From a virus (Duplodnaviria > Heunggongvirae > Uroviricota > Caudoviricetes): DNA of 15,083 nucleotides. The stretch lies in the IMG/VR virus record IMGVR_UViG_2571042690_000010. One strand, given 5' to 3'. The first letter of the stretch is position 1, and each line of letters begins with the position of its first letter. Below the pieces are notes generated by a model that was given only the letters and a program-made list of their open reading frames with translations, made no database searches and was not told where the DNA came from. Both the position numbers and the translations under genes were made by a program. Shown here one piece after another: positions 455 through 14,487 of the stretch.

Positions 455-988
455 ATGAACGCAAAAATCAGATACGGCCTGTCGGCTGCCGTTCTGGCAC
501 TGATTGCCGTCGGTGCGCCCGCGCCTGATATTCTCGACCAGTTTCTGGATGAAAAAGAAGGTAACCACACAACGGCATACCGCGATGGGTCCGGCATCTG
601 GACCATCTGTCGGGGGGCCACGATGGTGGATGGAAAACCCGTTTTTCCCGGTATGAAACTGTCGAAGGAAAAATGCGACCAGGTCAACGCCATTGAGCGT
701 GATAAGGCGCTGGCATGGGTGGAGCGCAATATTAAAGTACCACTGACCGAACCACAAAAAGCGGGTATAGCGTCATTCTGTCCCTATAACATTGGCCCCG
801 GTAAGTGTTTCCCGTCGACGTTTTATAAGCGGCTGAATGCCGGTGATCGTAAGGGCGCATGCGAGGCGATTCGCTGGTGGATAAAAGATGGTGGGCGCGA
901 TTGCCGCATACGTTCAAATAACTGCTATGGACAGGTTATTCGTCGTGACCAGGAAAGCGCATTAGCCTGTTGGGGGATAGAGCAGTGA
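455..988 (+). CDS. Phage endolysin, T4-lysozyme-like (GH24) with N-terminal signal-anchor-release (SAR) domain
   Basis: 177-aa ORF. The N-terminus [18 protein letters not shown] is a weakly hydrophobic Gly/Ala-rich segment typical of SAR domains. It is followed by [16 protein letters not shown], which fits the Glu-Asp-Thr catalytic spacing of T4-type lysozymes. It closely resembles the 177-aa R lysozymes of lambdoid E. coli prophages as I recall them. Confidence 0.9.
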
Positions 989-1446
989 GCAGAGTCGCCG
1001 CGATTATTTATGCTTTGGTTATCTGCATCATCGTCTGCCTGTCGTGGGCGGTCAATCATTACCGTGATAACGCCATCGCCTACAAAGAACAGCGTGATAA
1101 AAAAGTCAGTGAGCTGAAGCAGTCGATCGCCACCATCGCTGACATGCAGCAGCGTCAGCGTGATGTTGCTGCACTCGATGCAAAGTACTCGAGAGAATTA
1201 GCCAATGCGAAAGCTGAAAATGAAACTCTGCGCGCTGATGTTGCCGCTGGTCGTCGTCGGTTGCACATCAAAGCAGTCTGTCAGTCAGTGCGTGAAGCCA
1301 CCACCGCCTCCGGCGTGGATAATGCAACCAGCCCCCGACTGGCAGACACCGCTGAACGGGATTATTTCACCCTCAGAGAGAGGCTGATCACTATGCAAAA
1401 ACAACTGGAAGGAACCCAGAAGTATATTAATGAGCAGTGCAGATAG
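985..1446 (+). CDS. Rz: Rz i-spanin (inner-membrane spanin subunit)
   Basis: GTG at 985 overlaps the endolysin stop (GTGA). The product [30 protein letters not shown]... has an N-terminal TM helix and a coiled-coil periplasmic part, near-identical in pattern to lambda Rz (153 aa). The ORF track's TTG at 970 is a less likely start. Confidence 0.9.
1205..1387 (+). CDS. Rz1: Rz1 o-spanin lipoprotein, fully embedded in the +1 frame of Rz
   Basis: 60-aa [27 protein letters not shown]... with a lipobox (VVGC) and a PPPPP proline tract, as in lambda Rz1. It lies entirely inside Rz in another frame. Confidence 0.9.
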
Positions 1447-1477: not shown

Positions 1478-1771
1478 TTATTGTGAGCAATACACACGCG
1501 CTTCCAGTGGAGTATAAATGCCTAAAGTAATAAAACCGAGAAATCCATTTACGAATGTTTGCTGGGTTTCTGTTTTAACAACATTTTCTGCGCCGCCACA
1601 AATTTTGGCTGCATCAACAGTTTTCTCCTGTCCAATTCCCGAAACGAAGAAATGATGGGTGATGGTTTCCTTTGGTGTTACTGCTGTCGGTTTGTTTCCA
1701 ACAGTAAACGTCTGTTGAGCACATCCTGTAATAAGCATTGCCAGAGCGGCAGAAAACAACATTTTTTTCAT
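1478..1771 (-). CDS. bor: Bor/Iss-family outer-membrane lipoprotein (serum-resistance moron)
   Basis: Minus-strand ORF MKKMLFSAALAMLITGCAQQTFTV...EARVYCSQ has a lipoprotein signal with lipobox ITGC and matches the lambda Bor / E. coli Iss pattern as I recall it. The ATG at 1771 has an AGGA Shine-Dalgarno 7 nt upstream. An upstream in-frame ATG at 1786 (MQDNKMKKML, 102 aa as in Iss) has no Shine-Dalgarno. Confidence 0.9.
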   Translation of the reverse strand: MKKMLFSAALAMLITGCAQQTFTVGNKPTAVTPKETITHHFFVSGIGQEKTVDAAKICGGAENVVKTETQQTFVNGFLGFITLGIYTPLEARVYCSQ

Positions 1772-1787
1772 CTTATTATCCTGCATT

Positions 1788-1816
1788 GTTAAAAACGGCA
1801 GAATCCTATGTGACAA
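1788..1816 (-). promoter_or_regulatory. Candidate sigma70 promoter for bor
   Basis: On the minus strand: TTGTCA (-35, complement of 1811-1816), a 17-nt spacer, then TTTAAC (-10, complement of 1788-1793), placing the transcript start just upstream of the AGGA Shine-Dalgarno of bor. Hexamer match only. Confidence 0.35.
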
Positions 1817-1951
1817 CAATTAAACGATAGTTAAATGGATTGATGAAAATTAAAACTATATAGGTGGATGCTCAGCCTATCGGAGGTAGTCAGGATTTGA
1901 ATGTCAGTCTGTTGTCGGCATTCTGGCAATGCAATTTGGATAAAGCGGGGA

Positions 1952-2074
1952 TTAAAAAGATAGAGGCGAGCCGGTCAGGTAGAAATGAATCAGGCTCAAA
2001 GTGAAGCGGAAAAGGTCTGTGGCACAAGCTGATGCAGCCATAATTACAGCCTGATGATTTGTGGAATGAAACAT
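1952..2074 (-). CDS. Small hypothetical protein (40 aa) with a near-perfect Shine-Dalgarno, upstream of bor on the same strand
   Basis: Minus-strand ATG at 2074 preceded by AAGGAGG with a 6-nt spacer; stop TAA at 1952-1954. Product MFHSTNHQAVIMAASACATDLFRFTLSLIHFYLTGSPLSF. Absent from the ORF track because it is under 60 aa. No homolog recognised. Confidence 0.4.
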   Translation of the reverse strand: MFHSTNHQAVIMAASACATDLFRFTLSLIHFYLTGSPLSF

Positions 2075-2154
2075 GTTGAACCTCCTTAATTGATGTTATT
2101 CGAGTGATGAAGGCATTCTGTCCTTCTATAGTGTCCAGTAAATCAAACAGGAAA

Positions 2155-2176
2155 CTTGTCCAACGTGTTGGACAAG
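2155..2176. repeat. Perfect 10-bp inverted repeat (CTTGTCCAAC gt GTTGGACAAG)
   Basis: Read directly from the sequence. It lies about 80 bp upstream of the small minus-strand ORF and about 120 bp upstream of the HNH start. No U-run follows on the + strand, so it is more likely a protein-binding site than a terminator. Confidence 0.5.
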
Positions 2177-2296
2177 CCTCTCCATTAGTGAGTTGTATTG
2201 ATCACAACTCTACAAAGAATTCATTACTGGGTAGATGAAAATAGTTTCACTATGAATGGAGGAGGCTATGTCGGTGGCTTCTTCATTGGAGTACAT

Positions 2297-2647
2297 ATGC
2301 CCCCACGAATCCCACGCGCCTGCCGTAAGCGTGGATGTGCAGGTACAACCACAGACAGTTCTGGTTACTGCGATAAACATCGTGGCGAAGGATGGGTACA
2401 GCATCAACGCGGACTGAGCCGCCACCAGCGTGGCTATGGCTCGAAATGGGATGCCATACGTGCGCGCATACTGAAGCGTGATAATCATCTGTGTCAGAAC
2501 TGCCTGCGCAATGGGAGAGCCGTTGAAGCCAGAACTGTGGACCACATCATTCCGAAAGCTCATGGTGGCACGGATGCAGACAGTAACCTGCAGAGTCTGT
2601 GCTGGCCCTGTCATAAAGCAAAAACAGCGCGCGAACGCATCAATTGA
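2297..2647 (+). CDS. HNH homing-type endonuclease associated with the terminase (packaging accessory)
   Basis: ATG at 2297 with GGAG 5 nt upstream. The product has a Cys-rich N-terminus (CRKRGCAGTTTDSSGYCDKHR) and an HNH core (VDHIIPKAHGG...N...LCWPCH). It sits immediately upstream of the terminase genes, as in HK97-like phages. The ORF-track start at 2198 (TTG) and the ATG at 2252 lack a Shine-Dalgarno. Confidence 0.85.
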   Translation: MPPRIPRACRKRGCAGTTTDSSGYCDKHRGEGWVQHQRGLSRHQRGYGSKWDAIRARILKRDNHLCQNCLRNGRAVEARTVDHIIPKAHGGTDADSNLQSLCWPCHKAKTARERIN

Positions 2648-2794: not shown

Positions 2795-3277
2795 ATGTCT
2801 GGACCCCCGAAAACCCCGCCACGCCTGCATTTGATACGAGGCAACCCCTCAAAGCGGCCAGTTAAAGACCTCAAAAAAACCGCTAAAAAGGATGAAAAAG
2901 GTCTCCCTAAAATTCCGCAACATTTAGGGGCGCAGGGGAAGTACTGGTTCAGGCGAATGGCGGAAGAGCTGAATGCGGAAGGGATCATTTCTCAGCTTGA
3001 TGCGCGTGCGCTTGAGCTACTGGTGGAAGCCTATACCGAATACCGGCATCACTGCGAAACACTCGATGTTGAGGGGTACACCTACCGCTCGAAAACGCAG
3101 AACGGTGATGTGCTGATTAAGGCACACCCGGCTGCTGCGATGAAAGCGGATGCCTGGAAGCGGATCCGGGCGATGCTTGCAGAATTTGGTATGTCACCGG
3201 CAAGCCGGGCAAAAGTAAATACCGCCGGACCGGATAATGTTGATCCGCTGGCAGAGCTTTTAAAAGCGAGAGACTGA
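2795..3277 (+). CDS. Terminase small subunit, P27 family
   Basis: 160-aa ORF with a basic N-terminus (GNPSKRP...KKTAKKDEKGLPKIP) and a family-typical body (YTEYRHHCETLDVEGYTYRSKTQNGDVLIKAHPA). Positioned between the HNH gene and the large terminase. Confidence 0.85.
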   Translation: MSGPPKTPPRLHLIRGNPSKRPVKDLKKTAKKDEKGLPKIPQHLGAQGKYWFRRMAEELNAEGIISQLDARALELLVEAYTEYRHHCETLDVEGYTYRSKTQNGDVLIKAHPAAAMKADAWKRIRAMLAEFGMSPASRAKVNTAGPDNVDPLAELLKARD

Positions 3278-5034
3278 TGGCAAAAGTGGCTGACGGGATC
3301 CGCTACGCCGAACGTGTTGTTGCAGGAGAAATTGTTGCTGGCGAATTTGTCCGCCTGGCCTGCCAGCGTTTTCTTGATGATCTGAAGTACGGCGAAAAGC
3401 GGGGGATTTATTTCAGTGAACCCCGTGCGCAGCACATCCTGAATTTCTACAAATTTGTGCCTCATGTAAAAGGGGCACTGGCAGGCCAGCCCATTGAGTT
3501 GATGGACTGGCATGTATTTATCCTCATTAATATTTTTGGTTTTGTCATTCCGCTGGTCAATGAAGAAACCGGGGAAGTTGTCATGCGCAGCGATGGCAGC
3601 GGACGTCCGGTGATGGTGCGCCGGTTCCGGACGGCGTACAACGAAGTCGCCCGTAAAAACGCAAAATCAACCCTGTCATCGGGTATCGGCCTGTATATGA
3701 CGGGGGCAGATAGTGAAGGCGGAGCTGAGGTGTATTCAGCCGCAACCACGCGTGACCAGGCCAGAATCGTGTTTGAAGACGCCAAAAATATGGTCAGAAA
3801 AGCCCGGTCGACACTCGGGCGGTTGTTTGATTTCAACAAGCTGGCGATTTACCAGGAGCAGAGCGCATCAAAATTTGAACCGCTTTCCTCGGATGCAAAC
3901 AACCTGGACGGTCTGAACATCCACTGCGCCATTATTGATGAGCTGCATGCACATAAAACCCGCGACGTGTGGGACGTTCTGGAAACGGCAACCGGTGCCC
4001 GTCTGCAGTCCCTGTTATTTGGTATCACCACGGCTGGCTTTAACAAGGAAGGGATTTGTTACGAGCAGCGTGATTACGCCATCAAGGTATTGCGAGGCTA
4101 TAACAGCGACGTGGAGGGCGCTGTAAAAGACGACTCTTACTTTGCGATCATTTACACGCTTGATGAGGGAGATGATCCGTTTGATGAAACGGTCTGGCAG
4201 AAAGCGAATCCTGGCCTGGGCATCTGTAAACGCTGGGATGATCTGCGTCGTCTGGCGAAAAAAGCGAAGGAGCAGGTCTCTGCGCGGGTGAATTTTTTTA
4301 CCAAACACATGAATGTGTGGGTCACTGCCGAATCTGCCTGGATGGATATGATTAAGTGGGAGAAGTGCGAATACATTGCTCCACAACATGAGCTGAAAAC
4401 ATATCCCATGTGGGTCGGCGTCGACCTTGCTCATAAGATTGATATCTGTGCGGCGGCAAAACTCTGGCGAACCGATAACGGACATGTTCATGCTGATTTT
4501 AAATTCTGGCTTCCGGAAGGACGGCTGGAACGATGCTCGCGGCAGCAGGCAGAACTTTACCGGAAGTGGGCGGAGATGGATAAGCTCATCCTGACGGATG
4601 GTGATGTTATCGATCATGCTCAGATAAAAAGTGACTTACTGGAATGGATTGGCGGTGAAAACCTCAGGGAACTGGGATTTGACCCGTGGAGCGCAATGCA
4701 GTTCAGTCTGGCACTGGCTGAAGAAGGGATACCGCTGGTGGAGGTTCCGCAGACGGTCCGCAATCTGTCAGAGGCCATGAAGGAAACGGAATCACTGGTT
4801 TATGCCGGGCGTTTCCATCACAGCAATCATCCGGTCATGAACTGGATGATGTCTAACGTTACTGTAAAACCGGACAAAAACGACAACATCTTCCCGAATA
4901 AATCCACGCCGGAAGCCAAAATCGACGGCCCTGTTGCGCTTTTTACAGCCATGAGCCGCTTTCTGGTAAATGGCGGGGGCGTGAATGACTTTCTGTCCAC
5001 GCTTGATCCTGATGAGGACCTGTTAATTCTGTGA
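3277..5034 (+). CDS. Terminase large subunit (HK97-like, Terminase_1 type)
   Basis: 585-aa ORF whose ATG overlaps the small-subunit stop (ATGA). Size, position before portal, and ATPase/nuclease-like motifs (for example AIIDELHAH) support the call. Confidence 0.9.
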   Translation: MAKVADGIRYAERVVAGEIVAGEFVRLACQRFLDDLKYGEKRGIYFSEPRAQHILNFYKFVPHVKGALAGQPIELMDWHVFILINIFGFVIPLVNEETGEVVMRSDGSGRPVMVRRFRTAYNEVARKNAKSTLSSGIGLYMTGADSEGGAEVYSAATTRDQARIVFEDAKNMVRKARSTLGRLFDFNKLAIYQEQSASKFEPLSSDANNLDGLNIHCAIIDELHAHKTRDVWDVLETATGARLQSLLFGITTAGFNKEGICYEQRDYAIKVLRGYNSDVEGAVKDDSYFAIIYTLDEGDDPFDETVWQKANPGLGICKRWDDLRRLAKKAKEQVSARVNFFTKHMNVWVTAESAWMDMIKWEKCEYIAPQHELKTYPMWVGVDLAHKIDICAAAKLWRTDNGHVHADFKFWLPEGRLERCSRQQAELYRKWAEMDKLILTDGDVIDHAQIKSDLLEWIGGENLRELGFDPWSAMQFSLALAEEGIPLVEVPQTVRNLSEAMKETESLVYAGRFHHSNHPVMNWMMSNVTVKPDKNDNIFPNKSTPEAKIDGPVALFTAMSRFLVNGGGVNDFLSTLDPDEDLLIL

Positions 5035-14200: not shown

Positions 14201-14487
14201 ATTTTGCTTTTGCGAAAGGTGCCGGGCTGATGGGCGAGGCCGGGCCTGAAGCTATCATGCCACTGACACGGGCAGCGGACGGCTCTCTTGGGGTCAGAGC
14301 CATTGGCAATGTGAATAGTGGCGGGGGGGTTGTTTATTCTCCCGTGTATCACATCAGCATTCAGAATCAAGGGAGCAATGGCGAGATAGATGCGCGCTCA
14401 GCCAGGGGACTGGTGGATCTGATCGACAGCAGGGTTGTGTCAATTATGCAGTCATCGCGTCGGGATGGAGGATTGTACAGTGCCTGA
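11254..14487 (+). CDS. Tail tape measure protein
   Basis: 1077-aa ORF, Ala/Gln-rich with extended coiled-coil character and a Gly-rich C-terminal region, directly downstream of the G/GT pair. The start is ATG 11254 or GTG 11258; the latter has better spacing to GGAG. Confidence 0.9.
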   Translation: MSVATLRELIIKISANSRSFQSEISRASRMGQDYYRTMQNGGRQSAAASREMRRALAEVTDQINTAKSSALNMAGAFAGAFATGHLISFADEWNSVNARLKQASQSSDDFQASQRELMAISQRTGTAFSDNASLFARSAASMREYGYSSEEVLKVTEAISTGLKLSGASTAEASSVITQFSQALAQGVLRGEEFNSVNENGDRVIRALAAGVGVARKDLKAMADNGKLTADKVVPALISQLGALRDEYAAMPDTVSSSATKVENAFMAWVGGANEASGVTKTLSGVLNGIAGNIDTVATAAGALVAVGVARYFGNMASSAGSATAGLITAARNEVALAEAQLRGTQIATARARAAVYRAQQAVVAARGTERQAAAEAKLAAAQASLTRNIAARTAAQTTLNTVTSVGSRLLSGALGLVGGVPGLVMLGAAAWYTMYQNQEQARESARQYAAKIDEIRQKTSAMSLPEASDNEEKTRQALDEQNRLIDEQKSKIKSLQEKIAGYQYVLANPGWTTDNGFMINHMTSVKTVTEGLAEATNQLAVEQSRLTQMQGKAQSIQDVLAGLEERRVALIRQQAAEQNKAYQSLLIMNGQHTEFNRLLGLGNELLQQRQGLVNVPLRLPQATLDDKQQTALNNSKRELALSRLKGEARERARLGYAADDLGFVGEAYQTARQNYINNSLDAWRNNQANKPKAHKKTEAEKTEDIYKRLIKQQKEQIALAGQNTELAKMKYQVSQGELSTLSEAQKKTLLQNAALIDQKKIREQLAAYESSLADSNASTRASNDAQLLGYGEGSRMRERLQEMWSIRHEFEQKNNELLRQYQAGEIEEALWKQEKELNKKYLEERLSDQQDYYAKADALRNNWNAGLQEGLTNWADSATDYASQAADAVVSTMDGLVSNISDALAGNVVDWRNWGSSILQEVSKILMNAAIVNGLKSLSGAGGWLGTVGGWISGAVANAKGGVYTSANLSAYSNTIVDTPTYFAFAKGAGLMGEAGPEAIMPLTRAADGSLGVRAIGNVNSGGGVVYSPVYHISIQNQGSNGEIDARSARGLVDLIDSRVVSIMQSSRRDGGLYSA

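Follow-up and report, generated by a model that had tools for sequence, protein, structure and literature searches.

Tandem T7-like promoters without an RNA polymerase (RNAP) gene were reportedly described in enterobacterial genomes by Chen and Schneider in 2006. They are said to lie in integrase-bearing islands of 4-13 kb with direct repeats at the ends, spread over 150-620 bp, and the islands were reportedly proposed to be T7-dependent satellites. Two to three promoters of the T7 group are said to be aimed at short heterogeneous open reading frames (ORFs), with an infecting T7-like phage as the switch. Here we analyse a cassette that shares this principle and differs from those islands in scale, context and content. 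It is found in the gap between the genes bor and HNH (positions 1772-2296) of a 15,083-nucleotide stretch of Caudoviricetes DNA (IMG/VR record IMGVR_UViG_2571042690_000010, hereafter the window), at the lysis-to-packaging junction of a lambdoid/HK97-like E. coli prophage. On the minus strand, a promoter of the T7 supergroup is followed by a hairpin, a K1-5 promoter, a leader with a 5' stem-loop, a Shine-Dalgarno (SD) sequence and a 40-amino-acid (aa) ORF. Judged from its sequence, this is a unit inserted into temperate phages and equipped with predicted promoters of virulent Autographiviridae that match the host.

As reported for the islands, the promoters stand in tandem, with starts 57 bp apart and both aimed at the ORF. 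No cognate RNAP gene accompanies them: none was found in the window nor in the whole genome of Shigella phage SfIV, which carries a related cassette. Unlike the islands, the cassette is an insert of ~325 bp between the lysis and packaging genes of complete temperate phages of 40-50 kb (SfIV is viable), and its promoters belong to two subfamilies, with a podophage-like hairpin between them and one conserved gene of 37-40 aa. With the units of SP6-like phages (K1-5, KpnP_VR702, Kp7) it has in common a 21-nt promoter, a palindrome and a stem-loop after +1, the spacing between hairpin and promoter being 11 nt here versus 2-15 nt in those phages. In contrast to these units, it sits in a temperate phage without an RNAP gene, has a promoter of the other subfamily ahead and bears a cargo that is not of podophage origin.

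Lambdoid morons (bor, lom) are independently transcribed genes that likewise lie between genes adjacent in relatives, directed against the late operon and provided with a terminator-like hairpin. Classical morons are expressed in the prophage from a host sigma-70 promoter, whereas here a host promoter was not detected and the promoters are those predicted for foreign phage RNAPs. Engineered phage-triggered suicide systems, in which a phage-inducible promoter drives a lethal gene, were developed in Lactococcus in the 1990s. The cassette resembles these and pET cassettes in a promoter that, by prediction, only the transcription machinery of an invader can read, and in its stabilising 5' stem-loop, strong SD and payload; unlike the man-made versions, it is natural and the lethality of its payload is putative. 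Finally, type I toxins (Hok, TisB, Ldr) are similar in size (37-40 aa), single predicted helix, some hydrophobicity and strong ribosome-binding site. Unlike in type I toxin-antitoxin systems, neither an antisense RNA partner nor an Rfam family was found in 1400-2900, and no promoter-like site on the opposite strand, the hydrophobicity is borderline and there is no sequence similarity; control would here reside in promoter specificity, not in an antitoxin RNA. Full-text literature searches, including one for the exact promoter string, returned no description of a prophage-borne SP6/T7-promoter element.

Predicted promoters and hairpin upstream of the 40-aa ORF

When 1886-2296 was run by BLAST against phage genomes, short matches over 2115-2173 pointed to virulent podophages (K1-5, other Vectrevirus, and SP6-like phages of Klebsiella and Salmonella), those in Vectrevirus being mostly in unannotated or intergenic sequence. 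The downstream promoter (Table 1), assigned to the SP6 supergroup (Molineuxvirinae, K1-5/Vectrevirus class), has no mismatch to the K1-5 consensus. The K1-5 genome itself holds four exact copies of this 21-mer and seven with one to three mismatches (11 sites), all on the coding strand and one of them before the capsid gene. In the window the 21-mer matches once, with 0 matches expected by chance, and the matrix derived from the K1-5 sites gives it 35.8 bits (natural leave-one-out range 24.4-35.2; next best site in the window 6.3). The predicted start G follows ...CACTATA, and on the same strand it is succeeded by the leader, the SD and the ATG of the 40-aa ORF. The capsid-gene leaders of K1-5 and KpnP_VR702 open with a stem-loop as well.

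The upstream promoter, assigned to the T7 supergroup (Studiervirinae, Berlinvirus-like), scores 29.0 bits with a matrix of the 13 annotated promoters of Yersinia phage Yepe2 (leave-one-out natural range 22.1-36.5); the next best site in the window reaches 9.5 bits, over a background of -31.6 +/- 9.0. The upstream promoter and the annotated phi9 promoter of Yepe2 have 18 contiguous bases in common, and AATACNACTCACTA occurs once in the window versus 0.01 times expected. Short-query BLAST matched this site almost only to T7-like phages, including sites annotated as promoters, while T7 proper gave no match within three mismatches. The copy in SfIV scores 32.7 bits and is one base off Yepe2 phi17, and within the whole SfIV genome strong promoter sites occur in the cassette only. 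A lone Berlinvirus-type promoter-like site of 18.2 bits was also seen in the gtr region of SfIV (L254, 22705-22727, +); it is below the natural range and has no partner. Numbers preceded by L are our labels for individual sequences.

Between the promoters lies a perfect inverted repeat. In the minus-strand RNA it folds into an extended stem of 13 bp (-18.3 kcal/mol, z = -3.85), with a stability that 0 of 200 shuffles reach, and fits the pattern of a rho-independent terminator, with 13 pairs and a 4-nt loop followed by CUGUUUGAUU, in which the U tract is interrupted; on the plus strand the hairpin has no terminator-like score. The hairpin that precedes the promoter at 14450 in Klebsiella phage KpnP_VR702 has the same sequence, GTCCAACACGTTGGACAAGTT. 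Each of the SP6-like genomes that we examined has 6-9 copies of the palindrome, often directly ahead of a promoter and sometimes within genes, and the T7-like genomes Yepe2 and K11 have 0 copies. Its variants are 16-22 bp long and sequence-specific: GTCTCACNNGTGAGAC in K1-5 (L062) and GTCCAACNNGTTGGAC in Klebsiella phages (KpnP_VR702, L161; Kp7, L165). Cassette relatives with the K1-5 variant carry the change on both arms, and lineage-specific variants are mirrored in the cassettes. By this comparison, the hairpin is a copy of the palindrome that recurs in Molineuxvirinae. The hairpin after the RNAP gene of SP6-like phages has been read as a rho-independent terminator (PMC4837284). In SP6-like phages, the conservation of the stem sequence beyond pairing hints at a specific recognition factor and thus at more than a terminator.

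The 40-aa ORF, its AAGGAGG and the repeat are all present as the first-pass annotation of this DNA had described them. What it had overlooked is the key content of the gap, namely two predicted phage-type RNAP promoters flanking the repeat, which would drive the ORF instead of a host promoter. It had considered the repeat an operator or protein recognition site and the ORF a small toxin-like or regulatory peptide, perhaps acting together with bor, or else the region a small RNA (sRNA) locus. Such an ordinary host-transcribed moron would agree with the reality of the ORF and its position in a moron hotspot; palindromes can be protein sites, and their sequence-specific conservation across phages allows a protein-binding role. 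However, the repeat is common to virulent SP6-like phages and not to any repressor-bearing relative, it precedes a phage promoter by 11 nt, in the very arrangement of SP6-like phages, and its many copies there, together with its terminator-like character on the minus strand, speak against a private operator. A scan for sigma-70-like promoters gave 0 sites in 1400-2900 on either strand (a simple scan, which weak promoters could escape). The sRNA locus found no backing in Rfam, where 1400-2900 at E <= 1 gave only a chance plant microRNA match inside bor (18.4 bits; gathering threshold 60). The linkage to bor is a secondary recombination joint (see below), and two consensus phage-RNAP promoters that change class with the host would be left unexplained. 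We therefore regard a host-transcribed moron as improbable.

Table 1. Positions of the features in the window (arrows give the direction of reading on the minus strand)
Feature	Position	Strand	Description
Lysozyme	455-988		
Rz with embedded Rz1	970-1446		lambda-type, the working spanins of the window
bor	1478-1771	-	Pfam Lambda_Bor, 3.7e-30
Lambda/iss-type bor upstream region (bor 5' flank)	1772-1886	-	outside the cassette, joined by recombination at ~1886
Remnant of LysC-type o-spanin gene	1885-2004	+	dead 3' remnant, ~40 codons + TGA
Insert	~1972-2296	-	approximate extent, ~325 bp, absent from SfV-like phages
Small gene (ORF)	2074->1952	-	MFHSTNHQAVIMAASACATDLFRFTLSLIHFYLTGSPLSF, 40 aa + TAA
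SD	2087->2081	-	AAGGAGG, 6-nt spacer TTCAAC, then ATG
5' leader	2075-2126	-	52 nt: stem-loop GAAGG-N8-CCUUC (2126->2109), SD, 6-nt spacer
Downstream promoter, SP6 supergroup	2143->2123	-	ATTTACTGGACACTATAGAAG, predicted +1 G2126
Inverted repeat	2155-2164 + 2167-2176		CTTGTCCAAC / GTTGGACAAG, 100% complementary, 10+2+10, 2 nt between arms
Palindrome/hairpin	2155-2176, extended stem 2180->2151	-	CTTGTCCAACACGTTGGACAAG, then UUUCCUGUUUGAUUU; between the two promoters
Upstream promoter, T7 supergroup	2200->2178	-	CAATACAACTCACTAATGGAGAG, predicted +1 G2183
Right end of insert	2201-2296	.	83% identical to SfIV; HNH SD GGAG 2288-2291 on +
HNH	2297-2647	+	Pfam HNH, 1.9e-16
Small and large terminase subunits	from 2795		

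The cassette and its small gene in relatives

Loci were gathered independently of the promoters, with a 31-nt anchor in the lysC remnant run against IMG/VR, with the peptide family, and from BLAST matches in complete genomes. The resulting 182 locus entries include some contigs fetched twice and comprise 47 distinct upstream-plus-peptide versions. Every one of the 182 has at least one phage-type promoter of >=20 bits in sense orientation upstream of the ORF, and 179 have one Studiervirinae-type and one Molineuxvirinae-type promoter in tandem. As a control, HNH-anchored prophage loci of 58 other species (335 kb of DNA) were scanned; they contained 0 promoter matches of >=18 bits, and the gap DNA is not conserved in them. 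Since both the gap DNA and the phage-type promoters are missing there, the element is not a general companion of HNH.

The class of the downstream promoter differs between hosts. In E. coli it is the K1-5 type of the window, in SfIV the SP6 type (ATTTAGGTGACACTTTAGAAG; 31.3 bits with the SP6-type matrix vs 22.4 with the K1-5 matrix), and in Klebsiella the Kp7 type (CAATAGTGGCGAGTATAGAAC, consensus TAATAGTGGCGAGTATAGAAG; 28.8-33.4 bits, natural range 22.7-35.9). The window and SfIV differ in the promoter specificity triplet. The upstream promoter of the Klebsiella locus L166 is of the K11 type (AATTAGGGCCCACTATAGAGACC; 28.8 bits, natural range 25.5-38.7). Among homologous cassettes the predicted promoter class thus tracks the host genus. 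Klebsiella cassettes also have a third, weak SP6-like motif, AAGTTACACAATAGAAA (9.6 bits), ~40 nt before the ATG (L068, 2699->2679; L137, L148, L166-L169). It lies roughly at the slot of the E. coli K1-5-type promoter and could represent a promoter that has decayed or is tuned differently.

Between the window and SfIV, identity is 68.9% in the HNH gene, 73.3% in codons 1-20 of the ORF, 81% in the downstream promoter (with the differences mainly in the specificity triplet), 91.3% in the T7-type promoter, 93.7% in the C-terminal half of the ORF and 95.8% in leader plus SD. These values bear on the idea of a neutral scar, that is, podophage regulatory DNA caught by illegitimate recombination and carried without function. 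The hairpin-plus-promoter unit is indeed related to units of SP6-like phages, and capture from a podophage is its likely origin. Nevertheless, promoters of two subfamilies are not obtainable from one capture, at least five promoter classes occupy the same slots of homologous cassettes, each within the natural score range, and the regulatory parts exceed the neighbouring HNH in conservation by a wide margin. In addition, the cargo ORF was not found in podophages and varies in a coding pattern, and the cassette has outlived at least three independent lysis-module replacements to its left (both described below). A neutral scar is accordingly a shade less credible to us than the host-transcribed moron. 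We hold it very probable, from the sequence comparisons, that the two sites are true promoters for phage RNAPs and that selection maintains them.

Of 5426 complete E. coli genomes, 750 carry the element, O157:H7 among them, and in 625 its coverage reaches >=80%. The Klebsiella version was detected in 563 blocks of the assembly index and is widespread in K. pneumoniae. Rescanning viral contigs with an alignment of the peptide retrieved close relatives only and added no diversity.

The ORF is open in all 47 distinct versions (182 locus entries), with SD and ATG conserved. It is 40 aa long, or 38 or 37 aa in divergent versions, and 54 aa where an in-frame 5' extension is present. The extension is seen in L102, L152 and ~20 other IMG/VR loci, in which a leader TAA changed to TCA (AATAACATC to AATCACATC) opens an in-frame upstream ATG; the 54-aa ORF reads MPSSLESHQLRRFN-MFHS... 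and retains the usual SD and ATG. In the Klebsiella ORF the 5' half is unalignable, yet an SD (AAGGAG) and an ATG in frame are provided there too. No variation is seen in the C-terminal motif LSLIHFYLTGSPLSF among the E. coli, Shigella and Klebsiella versions, and hardly any in two distant relatives.

Site variation was counted over 20 distinct E. coli-type ORF sequences. Codons 1-20 contain 24 variable sites (9, 10 and 5 at codon positions 1, 2 and 3), of which 22 are nonsynonymous and 2 synonymous. Codons 21-40 contain only 6, of which four are synonymous changes at third positions, one exchanges TAA and TGA as the stop codon and one is a singleton replacement; part of this stretch is fixed by the search anchor, and the sites outside the anchor follow the same pattern. 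The ORF third positions in codons 21-40 are second positions of the overlapping lysC frame, so that such changes alter the lysC tail. In L173, a distant relative with an intact lysC, the peptide motif differs at 2 of 17 residues versus 5 of 14 in the lysC tail. Because of this synonymous pattern and the L173 comparison, the C-terminal motif LSL[IT]H[FY]YLTG[SY]PL[ST]F appears to be under selection at the protein level. The suspicion in the first-pass annotation that the ORF is not a chance one is thus borne out by its being open throughout, by the conserved SD and ATG and by the third-position variation in codons 21-40. It had also proposed to look in related prophages for conservation of the ORF and the repeat next to varying flanking genes: the ORF is kept, the hairpin is kept as lineage-specific variants and the flanking genes do vary, whereas the N-terminal half of the ORF is unconstrained. 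Taken together, the pattern supports the view that the small ORF behaves as a real protein-coding gene.

AlphaFold predicts a single helix over residues 2-34 (mean predicted local distance difference test score, pLDDT, 83), and, as read from the sequence, D20, R23, S27, H30 and T34 would fall on one face of it. A hidden Markov model search of 1.84 billion representatives gave five matches, all of them similar small ORFs except for one repetitive 662-aa protein, and three peptide variants had no match among the PADLOC-DB v2 models at E <= 10. The peptide is absent from Autographiviridae genomes. Given that tblastn against phages matched temperate relatives only, the cargo does not derive from podophages. 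A toxin-like peptide is a possible product.

Mosaic context of the insert

The gap can be resolved, by its matches, into a mosaic of a bor flank, a lysC remnant and the insert of ~325 bp. The first 115 bases of the gap are 99.1% identical to the bor flank of lambda and of many lambdoid phages, where the match ends, and the same flank also precedes iss on chromosomes and plasmids. From 1885 to 2296, the sequence is 85% identical to SfIV, between the LysC-type o-spanin gene and the HNH gene of that phage, for which reason 1885-2004 is taken as an o-spanin remnant. It aligns with the ends of SfIV gp53 and E. coli lysC (...SLDLNVSLLSA.GQCNLDKAGI..IEASRSGR.ESGSK*), its translation ends in ...DLNVSLLSAFWQCNLDKAGIKKIEASRSGRNESGSK in the window versus ...DLNVSLLSALGQCNLDKAGIRRIEASRSGRSESGSK in SfIV, and it gives a weak Pfam LysC match at profile positions 40-68 of 69. 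Over its last ~50 nt, the remnant overlaps the 3' end of the small ORF in antisense. This o-spanin C-terminus is a leftover from the replacement of an SfIV-type lysis module by a lambda-type lysis-bor module. A 46-aa plus-strand ORF at 1864-2004, labelled 'DUF4347 (fragment)' in some GenBank phage records, corresponds to the same truncated C-terminus.

According to alignment and annotations, only 26 bp separate lysC from the HNH gene behind it in phage SfV and E. coli TF5, while SfIV, L064 and the window have ~325 bp more, the insert replacing the last ~14 codons of lysC relative to SfV/TF5. The lack of the insert between lysC and HNH in SfV-like phages agrees with the moron hotspot named in the first-pass annotation. 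The accessory unit of ORF and bor that it envisaged is not ancestral: the joint at ~1886 is, by these alignments, evidently a later recombination scar, and each of the two occurs without the other, the cassette in SfIV and L064 and bor in lambda. Moreover, the lysis module to the left of the cassette was replaced at least three times independently, at different joints, in the window, L063, L065 and L066 (~1886), in L067 (~1913) and in Klebsiella (L068, L166). After each replacement the whole small ORF and at least 39 nt of the lysC remnant are still on the cassette. As a further rearrangement nearby, L063 (E. coli O157:H7 MB9-1, 2912-4575) has an intact cassette, 96% identical, next to an HNH gene split by the IS3-family element IS1203.

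RefSeq annotation of E. coli genomes lists nothing under the gap stretch; some GenBank phage records label the 40-aa ORF 'hypothetical protein', and others mark a plus-strand DUF4347 fragment there. The unannotated gap holds a real micro-gene skipped by RefSeq annotation.

The minus-strand features could also be incidental to a function of the plus strand, such as translation or processing signals for HNH in the late transcript. The insert does supply the SD of HNH, and the late operon presumably reads through on the plus strand. On the other hand, SfV-like phages express HNH without the insert, Klebsiella cassettes are not adjacent to HNH, the most conserved blocks are the minus-strand SD, leader and promoters, and the plus-strand ORFs of the gap are not conserved in SfIV. 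Of all the readings that we weighed, this one is the hardest to credit. Within 2201-2296 no third phage-type promoter scores >=12 bits. A 53-aa plus-strand ORF (2256-2417), with GGAGGAGG ahead of its start, overlaps the HNH start out of frame and is probably a chance ORF, as neither the SD-like run nor the ORF is conserved in SfIV. A pairing of CCTCCTT (2081-2087) with GGAGGAGG (2257-2264) in a plus-strand mRNA was considered and rejected, its right arm not being conserved in SfIV.

Possible function of the cassette

How such a cassette might act can be outlined as follows. In the lysogen it would be off, because no sigma-70-like site was found and the hairpin would insulate it from upstream read-in. 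Upon infection by a K1-5/SP6-like or T7-like phage, the RNAP of the invader would transcribe the cassette strongly, in a pET-like manner. The 40-aa helical, moderately hydrophobic protein would be made in quantity and would harm either the invading phage or the cell that it infects, through abortive infection or exclusion, by which sister lysogens, and hence the prophage, would be protected. The transcript would also read on into bor, since no terminator is predicted between the ORF and bor. We lean, with reserve, towards this whole model of a tripwire that is silent in the lysogen and switched on by the RNAP of an infecting podophage, probably for defence. The fuller proposition, that a natural tripwire exists in temperate phages infecting E. 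coli, Shigella and Klebsiella, controlled solely by a pair of decoy podophage promoters (one of the T7 and one of the SP6 supergroup) that are retuned to the host and trigger an infection-aborting effector of 37-40 aa, with promoter mimicry in place of a protein sensor, is put forward as tentative and has, in our estimate, rather less than an even chance of being right.

Several observations weigh against this model. The T7-type site is off consensus at -17, -11, -2 and +3 to +6; its non-consensus bases all occur in natural Yepe2 promoters, except those at +3, +5 and +6. In about a quarter of the loci an A-to-G change at -6 lowers the score of this site to 24 bits. The terminator-like hairpin stands between the upstream promoter and the ORF, and part of those transcripts could stop there. 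The sigma-70 scan was crude and also missed whatever promoter drives bor, so that silence in the lysogen is not proven by it. On the side of the product, the N-terminal 20 codons show no amino-acid constraint, and hydrophobicity is moderate, with grand average of hydropathicity (GRAVY) values of 0.45-1.26 and a best 19-residue window of 1.40 here and 1.83 in Klebsiella. The peptide matches no family in Pfam, NCBIfam, PHROG or PADLOC, and no toxin or defence family among them. The steps from silence in the lysogen through induction to harm are what we infer from the arrangement of the DNA, and the defence role is the least certain of them.

The same promoters could alternatively serve the prophage by hitch-hiking on the RNAP of the invader, through read-through into bor/iss or distant leftward genes or through mimicry of a replication origin. 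The primary replication origin of T7 is a pair of tandem promoters. The same logic was reportedly proposed for the T7-dependent satellite islands, where tandem promoters without an RNAP gene are also said to occur. The absence of a predicted terminator between the ORF and bor would suit this explanation as well, and several lineages have a co-oriented gene behind the small ORF, which is bor/iss, a 125-aa ORF (Klebsiella) or a 112-aa ORF (L173). However, the ancestral arrangement (SfIV, L064, L173) is without a co-oriented follower and its transcript would run antisense into the lysis genes. Furthermore, the downstream genes vary by lineage, the opposite strand carries the packaging and structural genes, and the sole constant cargo is the small ORF with its strong SD and constrained C-terminus. 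We consider hitch-hiking unlikely, and still the most serious of the competitors.

Known anti-phage systems sense the invader by proteins or nucleic-acid modifications. If the tripwire model is true, borrowing the promoter of the invader would be a very cheap sensor, and a confirmed defence role would make it a new sensing principle. Evasion would be hard, because escape would require the polymerase to change together with all its promoters. From the exchange of promoter classes between hosts one would, in that case, be able to read which podophages had exerted pressure on which lysogens. K1-5-, SP6-, Kp7- and K11-like phages are favoured candidates for therapy, and the cassette could affect their therapeutic host range.

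Some neighbours of the cassette in single lineages deserve mention. The co-oriented ORF after the small ORF in Klebsiella L166 and L168 (4510-4887, +) encodes an acidic, Cys-rich protein of 125 aa with no family match, and the 112-aa ORF of L173 (3573-3911, +) is in the same position. Like bor in the window, both would be read by transcripts from the phage promoters. In one divergent lineage, L171, a DUF4145 protein (3299-3982, -) adjoins the cassette, convergent with the small ORF; it matches the PADLOC model of PD-T7-4, an anti-T7 defence gene (E = 8.5e-12), and this neighbour suggests that the site of the cassette gathers anti-podophage functions.

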